A DNA stretch of 64,000 nucleotides from a virus (IMGVR_UViG_3300046559_000436:1-64000), one strand, 5' to 3'; positions 9,204 to 45,440 are shown, numbered from the stretch's first letter. Notes: generated from the sequence alone by a model not told the origin. Made by a program: numbers and translations.

Positions 9204-12200
9204 TTGTCGAGTCGTAGATCTATCATGGCTGCCAACAAGGGAATCTCGGTTCCTGTTGGTGGGATGGGCAGTGGTGGCGGTGCCCCTTCGGCGGGTGGTA
9301 GCTGGGGGTCAGGCGCTGCAGCTATGGCCGGTGGGATGCAGTCACACGGCTGGGCCGCAGCTTACGGTCAACCCATGCCGGGTCTTCCACGGCTTCCCGA
9401 CACCTTCACCAACGGTGCGTTCGGCCCTCTTGCTCCGATCCTTCCAGTTCCTGTCGATATGCCGGAAGAGGACACCGGCTACGCTGAAGCTCGCCTTCAG
9501 GAGTACCAGGTTGGCTGGAACCTTCCGGTAGGAACCCCAGGGGCCGAGGGGATCAAACTAACCGACTTCGGCACGTTGAAGACGCTGGCCGACCTGTACT
9601 CGGTGGCCAGAGCCTGCATTCAACTCCGTAAGTCGGAGATCCGTGGTATCGAGTGGGACATCCTGCCCACTCGTGACGCCTCGAAGGCCATGCGAGGTTC
9701 GCCGTCCCTGGCCAGATCGTTCGGTGCACGTAGAGCGGAAGCCATCCGGTTCTTCAAGCGACCCGACCCGGACTTCTTCAACTGGTCCAGCTTCCTCGAC
9801 GCGCTAAGCGAAGAGGTGTTCGTCTTTGACGCCTTGTCGCTGCTGATCCGGCCCAAGTGGGCCAGAGGGAACGGTCTGGGGCTTCTGGGGTCGGATCTCG
9901 ACTCGTTGTCGCTGATCTCCGGACCCACCATCCGGCCACTGTTCGGCATGCATGGTGAGCGGCCACGGCCCCCGGCCCCAGCGTACCAGCAGTACCTGTA
10001 CGGTGTTCCCCGAACCGACTTGATGTCCCTGATCACAGAGCGTGACCTGGAGTCCGGCCAACTGACCGGGTCGGAGATGGGTCAGTTCCAGGCCGATCAG
10101 CTTCTGTACCTGCCGATGGTGGCCAGGCGATGGACCCCGTACGGATTCCCGCCGATCGAGCGTGCTCTGATTCCGGTTCTATCCGGTCTACAGAAGCAGG
10201 GCTTCCAGTACGACTACTACCGTGAAGGTTCGGTTCCGGCGGTCTACATCTCGCCGGGTGGCGCCAATGCCAACATGACCCCGAACCAGATCCGCGAACT
10301 CCAGGATGCCCTCAACGCCATCGCGGGTGACCCAGCCTGGAAGCACAAGATCATCGTGCTACCGGCCGACTCGAAGGTCATGCCGCAGAAGCAGACCGAG
10401 CTGGCGGATCAGTTCGACGAGATCGTGATGAACCAGGTGTGCATGGCGTTCGACGTCCAGCCTATGGAGCTGGGCATCATGCCTAAGGTGTCCACCACGG
10501 TCAGCCCTGGTGCGGCCAACCAGATGTCCAAGGCTAGCCAGACGATCCATGATCGGAAGGCCACCAAGCCGTTCCTGTCGTTCGTGTCGGATATCATGAA
10601 CGTGATCCTTCAGGAGGTGGCCGGTCAATCGGACATGCGGTTTATGTTCGAAGGTCTGGAGGAGGGTGATGATGAAGCGACCAAGACCAAGACGCTGATC
10701 GACCAGGTCGGCGCGGCTCTGCGTTCGATCGACGAGGCCCGAGAGGAGCTGGATCTTCAGCCCTGGGGTCTTCCCGAAACTAGCGACCCTGGTTGGGCCA
10801 CCGCCACTGGTTGGACTCCTCTAACCGAGGCTGTTGCCGCCGCACGCAGTGGAACCGAAGAAGGTTCGGTCTTCGTCGACCCGGCGGGGGCGATCACGGG
10901 CGACACGGCTCCGGATTCCGCTGGTGCCTCGGCTTCTGGTGGCGCTGGCACCCCAGTTCCGGACCAGCCCGAGGCAGCGAACGGAGAGCCCACCCCTCCG
11001 ACCGTTCCTGGCATCCAGGCCGAACCAGGGTCTCCTCAGGCTCCGTCAGACCCGACCATGGCCACTCCGGCGGGCGGGGTCCAGATCCCCGGCCACGCAG
11101 CTGCGGAAGCGGCAGCGCCGGACGTTCCGTCGGCCATGGCGAAGGGCTTCAAGGGCCCTCACAAGGATTTCCAGGAGCGTCGGGCCACCCGGGTCGAGAA
11201 GCACTCCGCAAAGGTCGAGGAACGGCTCTCGGAGCTTGTCGAAGGGGTGCGGGACGGAAAGATCGACCGCAACAAGGCAGTCGCACTCGGTGTGACCGTT
11301 CTGGCGGCCGGTTACGCGGACATCGTAGACAAGGCCATTAACGACGCTGACAGCGACCTAGGGCTGAATCTGGACTCTCGGGACCACCGGCTCGGGACTG
11401 ACGTGGCGTGGCGGGAGAGCGAGAAGCAGCGACAGTGGCTTGACGGTCTGATCCAGAAGGCAATCGACGACCCTAACAAGAAGCTCAAGGGTCGAATCAG
11501 TGCCTATGCCCGGAGTCTGCAGGCGGTGTACAACCGCATGTACGTCAACACGGCCAAGGGGACGGGTCAGGACTGGCGTATCACGTGGAGACTCGGCCCG
11601 ACCGAGCACTGTGACTCGTGCATCGAGAGAGACGGCAAGCAGTACGACCTCAACACCCTGCCAGGAATCCCGGGCGACGGTGGGTTTGATGACATCTGCG
11701 CCGGTGGCCCCAAGTGTGGATGCTCTCTCGAATTCGAGGAGGCTGACCGCAAGGACGCAGACGTAAATCCCGTCAAGAACCCGGGCAAGATCGACACCTT
11801 GGATCTCAAGGACCTGCACGAGCGAGTGGCTGAGCTGGCCAACTCCCGCATGCAGGTGGTTGGAAAGCACCCAGCCCAGCTGCTCAAGCCTGAGGACATC
11901 AGCGAGACGGACGTTCAGCAGATTTTCGCCAGCAAGACCAGGGCGATTCTGTCCGAGCTTGAGGCCATGACCCGGCATGTCAAGAAGGGTCGGTTGGTGT
12001 CCGAATGGGAGCCGCGTCACCTGTCCTCGGATGTGCTGGCCCGGGTCAACGAGTACATAGCTAAGGGCGCCGATGTGGAGACCGCATCGCAGATGGTTCG
12101 CCAGCAGCGCTTGGTGAGTACCGACGGGGTAGAGTATTGGGCTGACTTGATCGGGGACTGGCGGCCCGGTCAGATTTCGGAAGGTCGGGGCGGGGGCTAC

Positions 12201-13184
12201 GAGAAGCGTCCGCACGACGTGAACGACATTCAGGTCGCGTCCAAGGGGGCCAGCGACCTGGACGACCCGAACCCGGTGGCAGCTGAACACGTCGAAAACA
12301 TGATGATGGGGGATTTCAAGCCTTCCGGAATCAAGTGGATCAAGGACACTCAGTGGGTCGGTCCTATCAAGGTCGAGCCAGATCGAGTCGATCAGGATGA
12401 CATCGACGGGTGGGCGGCCAGCCACGAGCCCGAGAAGATCGCCAGGTTCGTCAAGATGCTGGAGAAGGGCAAGAAGATCAAGCCCGCCATCAGCATCCGA
12501 CAGACTGAGGGTGACAGTCGGATCAAGATCGTGGACGGTCACCACCGGTTCCTGGCCTACAAGCAGGTAGATGAGCCGTTCATCACTTATCTCGGGTTCG
12601 TCCCGGAGGGTGACGACCGGTGGGAGAGCACTCACTCTTACCAGCTGGCCAAGGACGGAAAGCCTTCTGAGTCCGCCCATGCCGTCAAGAGCCACGGAGA
12701 GGGTGAGAAGGTCTCGAAGGAGTCGGTGAACTACCGCCCGGCGGATGACCCAAACCAGCGATGTGGCAACTGCTCGATGTTCACATCGGAGACCAACACA
12801 TGCACCTTGGTTGACGGGGCCATTCGGGCCATCGACGTCTGTGACGAATGGGACCCGGTCGACACCAACAAGGCTCTGGCGCCCCAGGCTCTAGCTGCTC
12901 CGTCCCAAACGATCCCGGTCCAGACTCCTCAGGAGCCGCTCGACGAAGAGACGATGATGGCGGATCCGACGCTGATCGACTTCTTTGAAACAGGGGATGG
13001 AGCCAGTCAGATCAAGTGGGGGACCACTGGCGACATCTCGCGTTGCGTGACATTGGCAACGCAGTCGTTGGGGCTGGAGAACGCACAGCAGTTCTGTCAG
13101 GTTCGATACGCCAAGATGACCGGCCAGACAGCTAGCGGTCTGATTCATCAGAGCCCCGATGCTGGTGCCGGTGGTGGTAGCTAG
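9204..13184 (+). CDS. portal protein fused to MuF-like, ParB-like and HiPIP-like domains
   Basis: TTG start with GGAGG SD; portal motifs (YGFPPIE, FDVQPMELG, SIDEAREELDLQP), then WRLGPTEHCDSC..GPKCGC, IVDGHHR and CGNCSMF..C..G.I....C. Confidence 0.85.
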   Translation: MSSRRSIMAANKGISVPVGGMGSGGGAPSAGGSWGSGAAAMAGGMQSHGWAAAYGQPMPGLPRLPDTFTNGAFGPLAPILPVPVDMPEEDTGYAEARLQEYQVGWNLPVGTPGAEGIKLTDFGTLKTLADLYSVARACIQLRKSEIRGIEWDILPTRDASKAMRGSPSLARSFGARRAEAIRFFKRPDPDFFNWSSFLDALSEEVFVFDALSLLIRPKWARGNGLGLLGSDLDSLSLISGPTIRPLFGMHGERPRPPAPAYQQYLYGVPRTDLMSLITERDLESGQLTGSEMGQFQADQLLYLPMVARRWTPYGFPPIERALIPVLSGLQKQGFQYDYYREGSVPAVYISPGGANANMTPNQIRELQDALNAIAGDPAWKHKIIVLPADSKVMPQKQTELADQFDEIVMNQVCMAFDVQPMELGIMPKVSTTVSPGAANQMSKASQTIHDRKATKPFLSFVSDIMNVILQEVAGQSDMRFMFEGLEEGDDEATKTKTLIDQVGAALRSIDEAREELDLQPWGLPETSDPGWATATGWTPLTEAVAAARSGTEEGSVFVDPAGAITGDTAPDSAGASASGGAGTPVPDQPEAANGEPTPPTVPGIQAEPGSPQAPSDPTMATPAGGVQIPGHAAAEAAAPDVPSAMAKGFKGPHKDFQERRATRVEKHSAKVEERLSELVEGVRDGKIDRNKAVALGVTVLAAGYADIVDKAINDADSDLGLNLDSRDHRLGTDVAWRESEKQRQWLDGLIQKAIDDPNKKLKGRISAYARSLQAVYNRMYVNTAKGTGQDWRITWRLGPTEHCDSCIERDGKQYDLNTLPGIPGDGGFDDICAGGPKCGCSLEFEEADRKDADVNPVKNPGKIDTLDLKDLHERVAELANSRMQVVGKHPAQLLKPEDISETDVQQIFASKTRAILSELEAMTRHVKKGRLVSEWEPRHLSSDVLARVNEYIAKGADVETASQMVRQQRLVSTDGVEYWADLIGDWRPGQISEGRGGGYEKRPHDVNDIQVASKGASDLDDPNPVAAEHVENMMMGDFKPSGIKWIKDTQWVGPIKVEPDRVDQDDIDGWAASHEPEKIARFVKMLEKGKKIKPAISIRQTEGDSRIKIVDGHHRFLAYKQVDEPFITYLGFVPEGDDRWESTHSYQLAKDGKPSESAHAVKSHGEGEKVSKESVNYRPADDPNQRCGNCSMFTSETNTCTLVDGAIRAIDVCDEWDPVDTNKALAPQALAAPSQTIPVQTPQEPLDEETMMADPTLIDFFETGDGASQIKWGTTGDISRCVTLATQSLGLENAQQFCQVRYAKMTGQTASGLIHQSPDAGAGGGS

Positions 13185-13475: not shown

Positions 13476-16148
13476 GTGGCCACCTCACTCACTGAACCAG
13501 GATCGACGGAAGTAGAAAGCCTTCACTTCAGCTTCCCCATCTCCAAGATGGAGACTGACGCGGACGGCGATCTGATCGTCAAGGGCGTGGCCACTGACGG
13601 TTCTGTCGACAGCGACTACCAGATTGTCGACCCTGAGTGGTCGGCCAAGGCACTGGGCGATTGGCTTTCCACTGGCGGTAACGTCCGCATGGCTCACGAC
13701 GCTCATCGCCCGGTGGGCAAGGGTCTGTCGGTGGAGATCGACCGGGACGGTGACGGCAAGCACTGGGTCAAGTCCGTCATCGTCGACTCGGAAGCCAAGA
13801 GGCTGGTCGAAAAGGGTGTGCTTCGAGCGTACTCGGTCGGCATCAGCCACCCAGTGATCAAGCGCGACCCGACCGGCCGAGCCCGTGGCGGAATCATCTG
13901 CGGCGGTGAGCTGAGCGAACTGTCGATCGTGGACCGCCCGGCGAACAAGAACAGCTACCTCGAACTTGCCAAGGCCGCTGGTGCGAACGGCTCGATCGAG
14001 TTCACCGGTGTACTGCACGAGGGAGCCCCCGAGGACGTCGTGAAGAAGGCAGTCGGAACCTTCTCACCCGGCGATCTGGCGAAGCTCCTGGAGCACCGTC
14101 GGGTCGCCGAGAAGCGCGACATGGACCCGGATGTGGGCGGCGGCGTCGATCGAGACAAGATCCCCGCCTCGGACTTTGTGGACCCCAAGGGCCGCAGATT
14201 TCCGATCGTCACATCCGGAGACGTATCGGACGCTGTCAGCTCTTACGGCCGAGCCAAGCCGCAGATCCCGATGGACAAGTTCAAGAGTCGGCTCACATCC
14301 ATTGCCCGGCGTAAGGGCTTCGAGTCGTCGCTCCCAGAGAGCTGGGGCAACGGCGATGCAAAGAAGGGTGCCTTGATGGCCCAGCCACCGATGGGGTCGG
14401 CCCAGGCCCCCCAGCCGCAGCCCCCCCAGCACAGTGGCCCTCCGGTACCGGCGCAGGGCCACCCGGCCCCTCCGGCGGGCCCCCAGACCCATCCGGCTAC
14501 TCTGGCCCCCAGCCCTCCGCACGGCGGCCCCCAGGACGGCACGGCGCCCCACCCGCAGCCCCAGATGCAGGACCCCAATCAGCCTCCGGCTTTCAAGTGT
14601 GACTGCCCGTGCGGCTATGAGGCCGACAGCCACATGAACTTCTGCCCAGGCTGCGGGTCCCCGATCGACAAGGGCGGCATGGGCATGGGTGGCCAGCCCC
14701 AGCCTCCGGCAGGTGGTCAGCCCCCGGCCGACCCCACCGACGCCAACGGCCATATGCAGGTGACCATGCCGATGCAGCAGAAGGCCGATGCCCCCCCGTC
14801 CAAGACGGTTGGCGAGCCTCTGGAGCGTACAGACGTCCCGGAGTCGGTTGCGGACGCCAAGAAGAAGCCGAAGAAGCAGGGCAAGCCGAAGTCCCTGATG
14901 GCTGAGACCGAGGCGTACGCCAAGAAGCCGAAGAAGAACGGCAAGATCCCGACTCCGAAGGGCGTCCCGACTCCCGACGGTCTCCCTGCCACCAAGTCGT
15001 CGGTGGAGATGGACTACGCCATGCAGACGGCGATGGTCCTGAAGCAGCTCGACGTCCCGTCGGACCTCGGCGCACTTCACGACCTCCTGTGCCCCGGGTT
15101 CCACCCGATCGACGCCGAGAAGTGCCACCCCACCCATTCGCTCAAGTCGGTGGATGTCAGCTTCTGGCAGAACGAGGCGCTGAACGCGGCCACAGGCGCC
15201 CCCCTGGTGGAGGCGGCCAGGGCAACCGAACGCTGGCAGGCCGCCGAGACCATCAAGTCGGCGGCTGCTGATCGACCGGATGAGATCCTGGACATCCGCC
15301 ATGAGGCCCACAAGGCATTCAAGGACGCTCAGATCGGCCCTGGGACTGCTCCAACTCCGACTCAGATCCGGGCCGGTCAGTTCAAGCGCCCCAACCTGAC
15401 TGCCGGTCACGGTCGCCCATCGAACGGACACGACAGCCCGAACACGGCGGAGGTTCCGTCGGACGGTATCGCTGCCGCTGACTTCCGGGGCGGATACCTG
15501 GACTCCCAGCACGCCGATGAGAGCCCGTCCAACAAGAGTCAGCGCCCGATCAACTACCCCACTTCGACGGGTAACCTCCAGACCGTCGACTACGCGAACG
15601 CGTCCCGTCAGGCGGCCAAGTCCGCGATGGACGCCATCCACGACCACATCTCCCACACGTTCCCGGACCTCTGCCCGATGGGCTCCCCCGGCGGCACCGA
15701 GGACCTCGGCCACGTCCCGATGGGCGAGACCAAGGTCCCGCAGCCCGTCGGCGACCGAGCCAAGAAGTCCGAGGGAACGGGCACGGAGAAGTCCGTCACC
15801 ACCGAACCCGCAGGTTCTGACGTTCTGGAGATGCTGGGAGGGATGGCAGCGGAGCTGCGCACCCTCACCAAGTCTCTGAACAAGGAACGTAAGCGGAACG
15901 CCGAACTGCAGAAGACGGTCGATTCCATGGCAGCGATGCCGGACCCGACAGTTACCGCGTTCAAGGGCGTGTTCTTCGATCGTACCGTCAACAAGTCGGC
16001 AGTTCCGGCCAGGGCGGTCGCTGACGCTGCGGAGCAGACTCAGCAGATGATGATGCGCGAGCTGGAGTCCCAGTTCCGCACCAGCCACGACCCGGCGCAG
16101 CGGGAGGCTGCCTGGGCGTCTCTCATGAAGATGCGCGGCCTGTCCTAA
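13476..16148 (+). CDS. prohead protease / scaffold fusion
   Basis: HK97-type protease (GVATDGSVD..D, MAHD, AYSVG, ELSIVDRPAN), then DFVDPKGRRFPI domain, Pro/Gln-rich linker, Zn ribbon and C-terminal coiled coil. Confidence 0.85.
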   Translation: MATSLTEPGSTEVESLHFSFPISKMETDADGDLIVKGVATDGSVDSDYQIVDPEWSAKALGDWLSTGGNVRMAHDAHRPVGKGLSVEIDRDGDGKHWVKSVIVDSEAKRLVEKGVLRAYSVGISHPVIKRDPTGRARGGIICGGELSELSIVDRPANKNSYLELAKAAGANGSIEFTGVLHEGAPEDVVKKAVGTFSPGDLAKLLEHRRVAEKRDMDPDVGGGVDRDKIPASDFVDPKGRRFPIVTSGDVSDAVSSYGRAKPQIPMDKFKSRLTSIARRKGFESSLPESWGNGDAKKGALMAQPPMGSAQAPQPQPPQHSGPPVPAQGHPAPPAGPQTHPATLAPSPPHGGPQDGTAPHPQPQMQDPNQPPAFKCDCPCGYEADSHMNFCPGCGSPIDKGGMGMGGQPQPPAGGQPPADPTDANGHMQVTMPMQQKADAPPSKTVGEPLERTDVPESVADAKKKPKKQGKPKSLMAETEAYAKKPKKNGKIPTPKGVPTPDGLPATKSSVEMDYAMQTAMVLKQLDVPSDLGALHDLLCPGFHPIDAEKCHPTHSLKSVDVSFWQNEALNAATGAPLVEAARATERWQAAETIKSAAADRPDEILDIRHEAHKAFKDAQIGPGTAPTPTQIRAGQFKRPNLTAGHGRPSNGHDSPNTAEVPSDGIAAADFRGGYLDSQHADESPSNKSQRPINYPTSTGNLQTVDYANASRQAAKSAMDAIHDHISHTFPDLCPMGSPGGTEDLGHVPMGETKVPQPVGDRAKKSEGTGTEKSVTTEPAGSDVLEMLGGMAAELRTLTKSLNKERKRNAELQKTVDSMAAMPDPTVTAFKGVFFDRTVNKSAVPARAVADAAEQTQQMMMRELESQFRTSHDPAQREAAWASLMKMRGLS

Positions 16149-41351: not shown

Positions 41352-41890
41352 TGCCTCGTCTCCCCCACGACCACCCCGCGAACGACCTTCCGGCCACCCC
41401 GGACCAGAAGAACTTCATTCTCAAGTACAAGATGGCTCCGGTCTCTGTGGTTCTGCGGCTCACCTACCGAGAAGCCCAGCGGATCATGTCTGGCGGCGGG
41501 GTTCCGGTGGAACCCCCGGTTCCGAACCAGCCCAAGAAGCCGGTTCCGGCGGTTCAGCTGGAGAAGGGTGGGTTGCACTTGATCGGAACCCGGGTGTTCC
41601 GGCTTCACATGGGTGGTTCCGGTCTCCTGTACGCGAAGGTTCTGACGGAACTCGAAATTCCGCGCGTCGCCAGCAACGGAGTTCGGCGATTCCGATGGGA
41701 GTTCGCCAAGGGCGTCATGCGATCGATTCGGCCGGAGAACAGGCTCACCAAGGAACAGGCCGAAGCATTTGGCCGTCGGTTCTCATGCTGCGTCCGCTGC
41801 GGGATCGAGCTGGACCCCAACATCACTGACCGAGACGGCAACCGCCGTTACATCGGTCCCATCTGCGAGAAGAAGATGGGATGGTCATGA
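41351..41890 (+). CDS. DUF6011-like Zn-finger protein
   Basis: A.AFG....CCVRCGIEL...GPIC. Confidence 0.6.
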   Translation: MPRLPHDHPANDLPATPDQKNFILKYKMAPVSVVLRLTYREAQRIMSGGGVPVEPPVPNQPKKPVPAVQLEKGGLHLIGTRVFRLHMGGSGLLYAKVLTELEIPRVASNGVRRFRWEFAKGVMRSIRPENRLTKEQAEAFGRRFSCCVRCGIELDPNITDRDGNRRYIGPICEKKMGWS

Positions 41891-42411
41891 CAAAGCCTCT
41901 CCTACTGCTTGATGTGGACGGGCCGCTGAACCCGTACGCGGCCAAGCCGTCCCGCCGACCCGAGGGTTACGAGACACACCGGCTGGTGCCGACCGGCCAC
42001 AACCCTCGAAAGCCGTTCCGGGTCTGGCTCAATCCGAGCCATGGCCCGTCTCTGCTGGCACTGCCTTTTGACCTGGTCTGGTGCACCACCTGGGAACACG
42101 ACGCCAACCGACTGATCGGACCCAACATCGGGCTACCTGAACTGCCGGTGCTGGAGTTTCCTCCAGCTCTCAAGTTCCGGAACTTCGAGCGGGACGAGGA
42201 TGGCACCTACTGGAAGACGCACACTGTCGTCGAATGGGCGGCCGGGCGACCATTCGCCTGGGTGGACGACGAGATCCGGGCAGCTGATCACGAGTACATC
42301 GCCAACCACCACCGGGGGGCGGCCATGGCGCACCAGATCAACCCAGCCAAGGGGCTTCTGCCCGAAAACTTCGATATCCTGAAAGTGTGGGCCAAGCGCA
42401 ATGGCAATTAA
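41887..42411 (+). CDS. HAD-family phosphatase (Swiss Army Knife RNA repair-like)
   Basis: LLLLDVDGPLN, LVWCTTW, WK, FAWVDD. Confidence 0.85.
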   Translation: MTKPLLLLDVDGPLNPYAAKPSRRPEGYETHRLVPTGHNPRKPFRVWLNPSHGPSLLALPFDLVWCTTWEHDANRLIGPNIGLPELPVLEFPPALKFRNFERDEDGTYWKTHTVVEWAAGRPFAWVDDEIRAADHEYIANHHRGAAMAHQINPAKGLLPENFDILKVWAKRNGN

Positions 42412-44113: not shown

Positions 44114-44143
44114 TTGACTCTAGCACAAGACATGTGCTAGAAT
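44114..44143 (+). promoter_or_regulatory. strong promoter of the RNA operon with an overlapping palindrome
   Basis: TTGACT-18-TAGAAT; CTAGCACA(44120-27)/TGTGCTAG(44133-40) inverted repeat. Confidence 0.75.
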
Positions 44144-44314: not shown

Positions 44315-44386
44315 GTGCTGGAAGTCGTCGGCGGGACGACGCCCCCTAAACCGGGGAGACGGTGGGTTCGAGCCCCACTCAGCATA
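44315..44386 (+). ncRNA. aberrant tRNA-like RNA (loop CTAAACC)
   Basis: Acceptor GTGCTGG/TCAGCAT, D stem GTCG/CGAC, 4-bp CCCC/GGGG anticodon stem, T arm GTGGG-TTCGAGC-CCCAC. Confidence 0.55.
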
Positions 44387-44649
44387 CGAATGGTCACACC
44401 AAGTGCACTTGGCGCATTCGAACACCCCGACATACAGTGACCTCTGGTCGGATCGCGTACTAAACCCGTCCATGCTTACCCTTACGGGTCGGCGGCGTTC
44501 AGGGAGACGGGGTACCGGGATAGAGTGAACGTACTCCCGGGAAGGTGGGCCGGACGTCTGTATGCCGCAGTTTACGGGCACACGGGTAACAGTCAGAATT
44601 GCGAGACTAGAATCCGGGAGCGGGAGGGGTACCCCGCACAACTTAACAA

Positions 44650-44758
44650 GGGCCTGTAGTTTACTTGTCCGAACGAGGGGCGCCCCTCAAGTAGGTCGCA
44701 CTACCGGAAGAACGGCGGCAGAAATCCGCTGGTGCGGGTTCGAATCCCGTCAGGTCCA
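44650..44758 (+). ncRNA. aberrant tRNA-like RNA with Ala identity and a D-loop insertion
   Basis: GGGCCTG/CAGGTCC-A acceptor (G3-U70, A73), TA-GTTT..GAAC D stem with a roughly 40 nt insert, GCGG-CAGAAAT-CCGC, GCGGG-TTCGAAT-CCCGT. Confidence 0.6.
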
Positions 44759-44943
44759 CGTTGTCCAGGTCACCACGGTCGAGGAAACAACCCCTCGGAC
44801 GGATCGAGACGGACAAGCACAGACGATCGTGACCGAGTCTGTGCTCAGCAGAGAAGCGGCGCAGACAAGGGCAGGGCCGCCACGCGGGGAGCGCCTCCGG
44901 AAACGGAGGACACGAGGGATGAGACCCGCATCCAACTTAATAA

Positions 44944-45024
44944 GCCCCTTTGGCGGAATGGCAGACGCGCTGGTCTTAGGAACCAGTGTCTTCGGACGTG
45001 AGAGTTCAAATCTCTCAGGGGGCA
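44944..45024 (+). tRNA. tRNA-Leu(TAG)
   Basis: GCCCCTT/AGGGGGC acceptor, CTGGT-CTTAGGA-ACCAG, long variable arm, GAGAG-TTCAAAT-CTCTC; no encoded CCA. Confidence 0.93.
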
Positions 45025-45159
45025 CGGGACGTACAGAATGTCGGAAGTAACCGGAGTGGAACACGTCGGAGTGCGCACGATGACGTGGAAAGCAAAGGCG
45101 AGGTAAGACAATAGCGCAGAACGCCGGACGGTGTTTGTCTGCCACGTCCACCGATCACT

Positions 45160-45399: not shown

Positions 45400-45440
45400 A
45401 GAAAACCCCTCTGTTGCCTGGAAAGCAGAGGGGTTTTCTT
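45400..45440 (+). terminator. intrinsic terminator of the RNA operon
   Basis: AGAAAACCCCTCTG/CAGAGGGGTTTTCT followed by T. Confidence 0.8.

Follow-up and report, generated by a model that had tools for sequence, protein, structure and literature searches.

A tRNA-shaped RNA gene with guarded alanine identity marks and a freely replaced core in a soil phage: a possible non-decoding alanyl-tRNA mimic

A soil phage carries a 109-nt tRNA-shaped RNA gene at positions 44650-44758 (plus strand) of the window, by which we mean the whole 64,000-nt stretch of DNA that was analysed, taken from the start of a virus record of 97,260 bp. This element combines the complete alanine identity set of a tRNA acceptor end with a 39-nt insert in the D region. 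Judging from its sequence, the reading that we tentatively prefer is that the element derives from tRNA-Ala and may be a processed, alanine-chargeable RNA that takes no part in decoding, that is, a mimic of alanyl-tRNA. An earlier note on this DNA had claimed a non-canonical tRNA-shaped RNA with alanine identity, and this claim was borne out. The identity set is invariant in five syntenic units in which neighbouring pairs covary.

The features of the element, its operon and its relatives are collected in Table 1. The acceptor stem is paired at 7/7 positions, including G1-C72, G2-C71 and G3-U70, and ends in A73 at 44758. The alanine identity set, consisting of the G3-U70 wobble, A73, G2-C71 and a regular acceptor helix, is thus present in full. 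No CCA is encoded, and the bases after A73 read CGU. In the D region, U8-A9 and A14 are of tRNA type, and G18 is followed by U, without G19. A 5-nt direct repeat, GAACG (44671-44675 and 44710-44714), bounds the insert, and GUUU at 44659-44662 can pair with GAAC at either 44671-44674 or 44710-44713. These D-stem alternatives are near-equal in predicted energy (-39.8 versus -41.9 kcal/mol, with -42.8 kcal/mol for the unconstrained fold). The anticodon-like loop reads C-A-GAA-A-U, with A33 in place of U33 and with A37 present. All helices, the three inner hairpins included, are intact in the predicted fold, and the folding energy of the whole element is unexceptional by itself (z = -1.37). The frame formed by a 7/7 acceptor, a 5/5 T stem and a TTCRANN loop far exceeds what chance would give, with seven occurrences on the plus strand of the genome, in six tRNAs and the element, and none in 30 shuffles. 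The earlier note had listed an acceptor with G3-U70 and A73, a T arm, a GUUU/GAAC pairing, two hairpins and a GAA arm lacking U33, all of which lie where it had placed them. Its D-loop insertion of roughly 40 nt measures 39 nt between the GAACG repeats, and the architecture of a cloverleaf plus an insert holds.

Table 1. Positions of the element, its parts, the surrounding operon features and the related units (window coordinates unless a locus is named)
Feature	Position	Strand	Remarks
Whole tRNA-like RNA gene	44650..44758	+	sequence, fold, frame scan, insert-removal test
Acceptor 5' strand GGGCCUG; G3 at 44652	44650..44656	+	as in 46 ARAGORN-called phage tRNA-Ala genes among the matches listed
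D-stem 5' strand GUUU (positions 10-13)	44659..44662	+	pairs with either GAAC copy
39-nt insert: first GAACG and two hairpins, closed by helix UCCG/CGGA (44668-44671 with 44705-44708)	44671..44709	+	fold; removal test
Insert hairpin GAGGGG-CG-CCCCUC	44675-44688	+	sequence
Insert hairpin GUAG-GUCGCA-CUAC	44691-44704	+	sequence
Second GAACG; D-stem 3' strand in the model of the earlier note	44710..44714	+	sequence
Anticodon-like arm GGCGG-CAGAAAU-CCGCU; loop 44719-44725, GAA 44721-44723, A at position 33	44714..44730	+	fold, sequence
T arm GCGGG-UUCGAAU-CCCGU	44734..44750	+	sequence; T stem covaries among syntenic units
Acceptor 3' strand CAGGUCC (U70 = 44754) and discriminator A73 (44758)	44751..44758	+	sequence
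3' spacer	44759..44823	+	highly conserved with L132; may be freed by 3' processing as an RNA of its own
Promoter-like site of the tRNA/ncRNA operon, TTGACT-18-TAGAAT	44114..44143	+	10/12 consensus matches
Weaker promoter-like site GTAACA-16-TAGAAT, 37 nt upstream of the element	44586..44613	+	9/12; in the Hiyaa-conserved block
Stem-loop followed by a T run, ending the operon	45405..45440	+	seen by eye; not listed by the pattern scan
Syntenic unit L134a			75-80 nt; ARAGORN-called tRNA-Ala(UGC)
Syntenic unit L130a			68 nt; compact, UUUGCAA loop kept
Syntenic unit L129a			76 nt; core unrelated; no 7-nt anticodon loop beside the T arm
Syntenic unit L132a			94 nt; core unrelated; no 7-nt anticodon loop beside the T arm
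Odd tRNA-shaped units of relatives	L129:9396-9519, 9872-9959; L132:11931-12022, 12263-12381, 12973-13039, 13540-13637; L130:9042-9137		

At full length, the element is not called by ARAGORN with default settings, and the Rfam tRNA model RF00005 (threshold 29 bits) does not report it even at E up to 10. Low-stringency ARAGORN searches (intron mode, lower thresholds), a check that the earlier note had proposed, returned only noise. When the 39-nt insert is removed, ARAGORN in default mode calls the remaining 70 nt as a tRNA whose anticodon is GAA and whose 5-bp anticodon stem carries a 7-nt loop with A37, indicating that a cloverleaf with a discrete D-region insert is an accurate description. 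Judged by the marks of a canonical tRNA, the element has the 7-bp acceptor, the 5-bp T stem and the UUCRANY loop, and it lacks U33 and G18-G19. Its 7/5 division between acceptor and T stem does away with the idea of an allo-tRNA, likewise a non-canonical tRNA shape from metagenomic or phage DNA, which is defined by a 12-bp acceptor branch split 8/4 or 9/3 (PMC5389517). Two further candidates were rejected. A possible tag reading frame in the element (GCG CCC CUC AAG UAG), spotted by eye, is put down to chance, as it is not conserved in the orthologues and a tmRNA architecture is absent; ORF 44562-45050 is rejected as coding for a protein, since the element and tRNA-Leu both lie in its path and gaps of 4, 5 and 11 nt interrupt the alignment with L132.

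The element lies in a 1.3-kb tRNA/ncRNA stretch without a credible ORF that extends from a promoter-like site to a terminator-like stem-loop. The promoter scan found only two sites, against 0.4 expected in shuffles. Besides the element, the operon holds tRNA-Leu(UAG), tRNA-Thr(UGU) and an odd tRNA at 44315-44387. The latter (plus strand) is called as tRNA-Phe(AAA) by ARAGORN only, with G1-U72, a 6-bp D stem with a 5-nt loop and a 4-bp anticodon stem; it is missed by the Rfam tRNA model and matched weakly (17 bits) by the tRNA-Sec model, and a comparable unit with a 6-bp D stem is found in phage Hiyaa (L128:9595-9672). The operon is flanked by genes for a PD-(D/E)XK exonuclease, an HTH protein and a primase/helicase-like protein. 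Among annotated phages, those of Streptomyces in the Hiyaa group come nearest, sharing the gene order and 44% identity in the exonuclease. Just upstream of the element, a block at 44583-44641 (plus strand) is 80% identical to phage Hiyaa L128:9389-9445. Towards its 3' end it can be aligned with the T arm of the tRNA-Trp of L132 (L132:13931-14002) except for a deleted T loop, so that this block looks like a tRNA remnant. Further away, ORF 41881-42411 (plus strand), 2.2 kb upstream of the operon, matches the HAD domain of Swiss-Army-Knife RNA-repair proteins weakly (E = 3.7e-4, below the curated cut-off), and a frame scan placed T-arm-containing units at 95.6-96.0 kb of the virus record, beyond the window.

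The stretch or parts of it recur in three rhizosphere or soil metagenome runs, and among the DNA contigs of these runs no variants or joints were seen inside the element. No RNA library was listed among the data sets that contain it. Searches of the phage for an encoded SmpB, a Fem-type (FemAB) transferase, a CCA-adding enzyme or an AlaRS/AlaX-type domain found none, so that its proteins give no hint of a partner for the mimic reading. There was also no sign of an antisense partner RNA: duplex energies between the element core and its flanks equalled those of shuffled cores in both the window and L132 (z -0.3 to +0.6), and the genome holds no exact complement of 12 nt or more to the core.

To follow the element across relatives, we fetched syntenic loci from viral and metagenome contigs by alignment of the exonuclease. 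In four such loci (L129, L130, L132 and L134; 48-55% identity), whose kinship to the phage is backed by many protein matches, the exonuclease is followed by a tRNA cluster that includes a unit with the acceptor frame of the element. The closest exonuclease homologues (P0002-P0004) are 81-82% identical. A query with the 971-aa primase/helicase found no close relatives in viral contigs and only distant ones, at about 32% identity, in annotated phages. Conservation was assessed across the resulting five syntenic units. Their interior is replaced entirely, with lengths from 68 to 109 nt, the element being the longest. In 5/5 units, A73 and the pairs from 1:72 to 5:68, G3-U70 among them, are unchanged, whereas pair 6:67 reads U-A, C-G, C-G, U-G and A-U, pair 7:66 changes once and four of the five T-stem pairs covary. 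The earlier note had proposed a search for compensatory changes that preserve G3-U70, and in the acceptor and T stems the five units show this pattern.

The clearest orthologue is L132a, in which the T arm, the 3' acceptor strand and A73 match the element at 23/24 positions; the 3' ends are so alike that the G3-U70 shared by this particular pair says little. In contrast, the two cores are unalignable, with 30 identical among 67 aligned positions and 14 gap columns. Selection thus bears on the acceptor/T half and the 3' spacer and not on the interior. Of these, the acceptor/T half is the portion required by AlaRS, EF-Tu and RNase P. The GAA arm of the element has no counterpart in L132a or L129a. 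As L134a is called as tRNA-Ala(UGC) and L130a retains the UUUGCAA loop, the lineage of the unit is that of tRNA-Ala. The acceptor GGGCCUG/CAGGUCC with A73 also recurs unchanged in 46 phage tRNA-Ala genes called by ARAGORN among the matches listed. With phage and bacterial tRNA-Ala the element shares the acceptor, A73, G2-C71, a canonical T arm, U8 and A14. It differs from them in its length, the D-region insert, the missing G19 and the lack of an alanine anticodon in a 7-nt loop, the sole such loop being that around GAA. Without the insert, the element is most like the unit L132d and the tRNA-Ala of L134a and not like the tRNA-Phe of L129, which gives the cluster units the appearance of paralogues that recombine. 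The GAA arm resembles that of L132d, and its origin from a phage tRNA-Phe is unsupported.

Some local features recur between units. A perfect palindrome forms the first inner hairpin of the element (GAGGGGCGCCCCUC, 44675-44688), of L132a (GGGGGUGGCCACCCCC, L132:14035-14050) and of the unrelated L048 (GAGGUGGCCACCUC, L048:1422-1541(-)), and GCGCGC before the T arm is common to L129a and L132a. The shared palindromes may reflect loop-loop pairing, a protein site or GC-rich chance.

Conservation continues beyond the 3' end of the element. The first 55 nt after A73 have only 4 differences from L132, and a second conserved block follows (window 44759-44943, plus strand; L132:14109-14300). One hairpin of the spacer differs in sequence and forms in both, as GCACAGAC/GUCUGUGC in the window and AUCGGGG/CCCCGAU in L132. 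The spacer at 44759-44943 is probably a structured RNA in its own right. A search pattern derived from the spacer gave no match in viral contigs.

These data leave a real, if unlikely, alternative to an alanyl-tRNA mimic, in which the element is a mosaic pseudo-tRNA that carries no amino acid and whose acceptor/T half is kept as a handle where RNase P and RNase Z cut to release the spacer RNA (44759 onward) and the upstream RNA. tRNA-like processing signals are known from tRNA punctuation, plant mitochondrial t-elements and mascRNA-type units. Like the element, they are tRNA-shaped units in a polycistronic non-coding transcript; in the element, only the acceptor/T half is conserved, and a conserved RNA segment comes after it. 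As the spacer and the acceptor/T half are conserved and the core is unalignable with that of L132a, the conserved parts are those that processing enzymes read, plus the spacer. The same alternative is in line with a spacer hairpin that persists despite sequence change, with cluster units that look like recombinant paralogues and with the decayed tRNA just upstream, which shows that tRNA genes in this operon do decay and counts against the mimic reading. However, processing signals need no aminoacylation identity: a cutting handle could do without G3-U70, yet the wobble and A73 are unchanged in 5/5 units while pairs 6:67 and 7:66 vary. Moreover, alanine identity is over-represented among tRNA-shaped units that ARAGORN leaves uncalled (see below), and every helix of the element is intact, down to the three inner hairpins. 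A processing handle thus explains the pattern of conservation well, but not the unchanged G3-U70 and A73.

Two other readings concern the GAA loop and the insert. Decoding by the element is unlikely because of A33, the lack of G19 and the 39-nt Y-shaped insert at the D region and elbow. It is accordingly in the realm of the improbable that GAA reads UUC/UUU in the ribosome, with the RNA charged either with alanine, giving Phe-to-Ala mistranslation, or with phenylalanine, which was considered because GAA and A73 are also PheRS identity elements. Such a decoder would fit the tRNA call obtained without the insert, with its 5-bp stem, 7-nt loop and A37, and the absence of a canonical tRNA-Phe from the phage, which the relative L129 possesses. 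Against it stand A33, where U33 is near-universal in tRNAs, the missing G19, the insert at the tRNA elbow, the silence of the Rfam tRNA model and the likeness of the arm to that of L132d, an odd unit with a 6-nt loop, and not to the tRNA-Phe of L129. As the GAA arm is also missing from L132a, the nearest orthologue, and from L129a, the suggestion of a Phe-codon mis-decoder in the earlier note found no backing, nor did that of a decoy for anticodon nucleases, the orthologues being without a conserved anticodon loop. We attach very little credence to the idea that the 39 nt between the GAACG repeats are cut out of the RNA, or deleted from the DNA through recombination of the repeats, to leave a 70-nt tRNA. 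The direct repeat at the insert ends, the ARAGORN call without the insert and the nearby ORF 41881-42411 with its sub-cut-off HAD-domain match would suit removal. However, 39 nt is far below the size of a group I intron, the Rfam scans reported no intron family, no insert-less form occurs among the DNA contigs of the three metagenome runs, and the product would keep A33. The relatives carry different interiors instead of a shared insert, and for the removable intron-like insert proposed earlier there was no sign of excision.

The alanine-type ends of the element also invite comparison with tmRNA. The literature names one phage with a tag-less (CDS-less, TLD-only) tmRNA, DS6A, whose RNA is reported to inhibit endogenous tmRNA in E. 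coli (PMC4131195; PMC11915505). We located the DS6A unit at JN698994 28478-28557 (L182), where it is unannotated in the GenBank record. A search with the 23-nt 3' end of the element returned full phage tmRNAs and shorter forms, and this 3' end is identical to that of the full phage tmRNAs L002 and L003. A two-sided pattern search of viral contigs matched more than 120 contigs. Among the matches listed, 124 elements were extracted, comprising 46 ordinary tRNA-Ala and about 76 that are uncalled as tRNA, most of the latter being 70-92 nt long with the signature of a tmRNA tRNA-like domain and no room for a tag. From an alignment of the DS6A unit with 22 others (23 members) we built a family covariance model; RNAalifold predicted 18 pairs for these members, 13 of them with compensatory changes. 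Among the matches listed, about 43 of 100 loci (L006-L105) score at least 55 bits on this model. TLD-only tmRNA genes are thus widespread in viral contigs (L006-L105; L130:9641-9719; L134:4819-4899; DS6A), and the members of the family have a covarying P2 helix and a common inner hairpin, CCGCACGCGG. Annotated phages gave no match to a TLD-only unit in BLAST, the query being too short.

The element and the DS6A type are alike in being phage-borne, in having an alanine-type acceptor and T arm, in lacking a tag frame and a usable anticodon and in lying among tRNA genes, and true TLD-only members lie in the corresponding operon of the relatives L130 and L134. That the element is itself a diverged TLD-only tmRNA acting through SmpB binding is nevertheless most improbable. 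The Rfam tmRNA model RF00023 provides the sole clan match at E up to 10 (44650-44761; 16.9 bits against a threshold of 47), and together with the 3' end shared with L002 and L003 and the TLD-only units in the operons of L130 and L134 it speaks for such kinship. This match uses only the two ends, 74 nt where the model has 328 positions; ARAGORN found no tmRNA in the phage, and the element has no mRNA-like domain architecture. On the family model the element scores 22.9 bits, the level of ordinary tRNAs (about 21), whereas members including L130b and L134b reach 69-99, and the match misses its true 5' end. The family motifs GGUUUCGAC, GGAC and CCGCACGCGG are absent. Unlike the DS6A type, the element has no GGUNNUCGAC after the acceptor, no P2 helix, no inner CCGCACGCGG hairpin and no GGAC before the T arm, and its 5' part instead has tRNA-type U8-A9, a tRNA-type D stem and three inner hairpins. 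From its score and the missing motifs, we conclude that the element is not a member of the TLD-only family. As GGUUUCGAC and GGAC are where SmpB binds, SmpB as a target is unsupported by the sequence. The whole records of this phage and L129 hold no TLD-only unit, and the L130 record holds one while its alanine unit keeps the UGC loop; with only three records searched whole, this pattern is just a hint in favour of an alanyl-tRNA mimic.

Alanine identity without a usable anticodon extends beyond the syntenic loci. In a census of 1.69 Mb of loci, 57 tRNA-shaped frames outside the search patterns were uncalled by ARAGORN, and G3-U70 with A73 occurred in 14/57 of them (25%), compared with about 4% of called, unselected tRNAs. 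Long alanine-type units with large structured inserts are found in L048 (120 nt), L010 (123 nt) and L127 (127 nt, with a D stem that encloses a long hairpin). Other tRNA-Ala-shaped units have canonical D and T arms with shrunken anticodon loops (L044:1161-1230, L005:157-229, L087:5348-5417(-) and L043:384-455(-)). The 4-nt loop CUAG of L044 looks like C-U-NNN-A-G minus exactly the three anticodon bases, and the anticodon-region loop of L005 is a GGAA tetraloop. The loci of these other alanine-type uncalled units share no detectable protein with this phage. Uncalled units with non-alanine acceptors exist in the relatives as well (L132b, L132c, L132f and L129c), so that units of alanine identity are not the only ones to have lost a usable anticodon arm, which counts against the mimic reading. 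The clusters of the relatives are full of long or odd tRNA-shaped units of 67-124 nt, with canonical acceptor, D and T arms, an expanded or replaced anticodon region and non-alanine acceptors. As standard tRNA finders miss all such units, they bear on annotation, whichever reading holds.

It is a rather doubtful generalization that phages possess a second class of non-decoding alanyl-tRNA mimics besides TLD-only tmRNA, made of tRNA-Ala derivatives that keep only the acceptor/T half readable by AlaRS and EF-Tu, have free and often enlarged cores and, charged with alanine, act on the host. The element, L132a, L129a, L048, L127, L010, L005 and L044 would be its members. If this were true, such RNAs might stand in for the TLD-only tmRNA in curbing trans-translation, or might sequester host defence enzymes directed against the tRNA acceptor end, of which MenT/AbiEii-type nucleotidyltransferases are an example.

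For the element itself, an alanyl-tRNA mimic would arise as follows. The RNA would be co-transcribed with the neighbouring tRNAs from the promoter-like site at 44114-44143, possibly also from the weaker site at 44586-44613. Host RNase P would cut at G1, RNase Z or exonucleases would trim after A73, and the host CCA-adding enzyme would supply the CCA end because none is encoded. Host AlaRS would then charge the RNA with alanine, reading G3-U70, A73 and G2-C71 and ignoring the anticodon; we infer this step from the conserved marks. Hou and Schimmel in 1988 and Francklyn and Schimmel in 1989 are said to have established the G3-U70 identity and the charging by AlaRS of acceptor/T-arm minihelices independently of the anticodon. 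To our knowledge, AlaRS is the only synthetase whose substrate can lose the anticodon and still be charged, which makes tRNA-Ala an obvious precursor for RNAs that bear an amino acid but do not decode. The alanine-type acceptor/T half might occupy or divert host AlaRS, EF-Tu and possibly SmpB, in the manner proposed for the TLD-only tmRNAs in the same operon of two relatives.

Phages are already known to carry non-canonical tRNAs and, in one case, a tag-less tmRNA; what is new here is a derivative of tRNA-Ala whose D region holds a 39-nt insert and whose core is freely replaced while the alanine marks are guarded. Overall, the element and its relatives suggest that actinomycete phages have reshaped tRNA-Ala genes time and again without giving up the alanine marks. 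Should the element be charged, it would be well suited to studying the benefit that a phage draws from a non-decoding alanyl-RNA; should it be uncharged, it would clearly exemplify a tRNA gene that has been turned into a processing signal.
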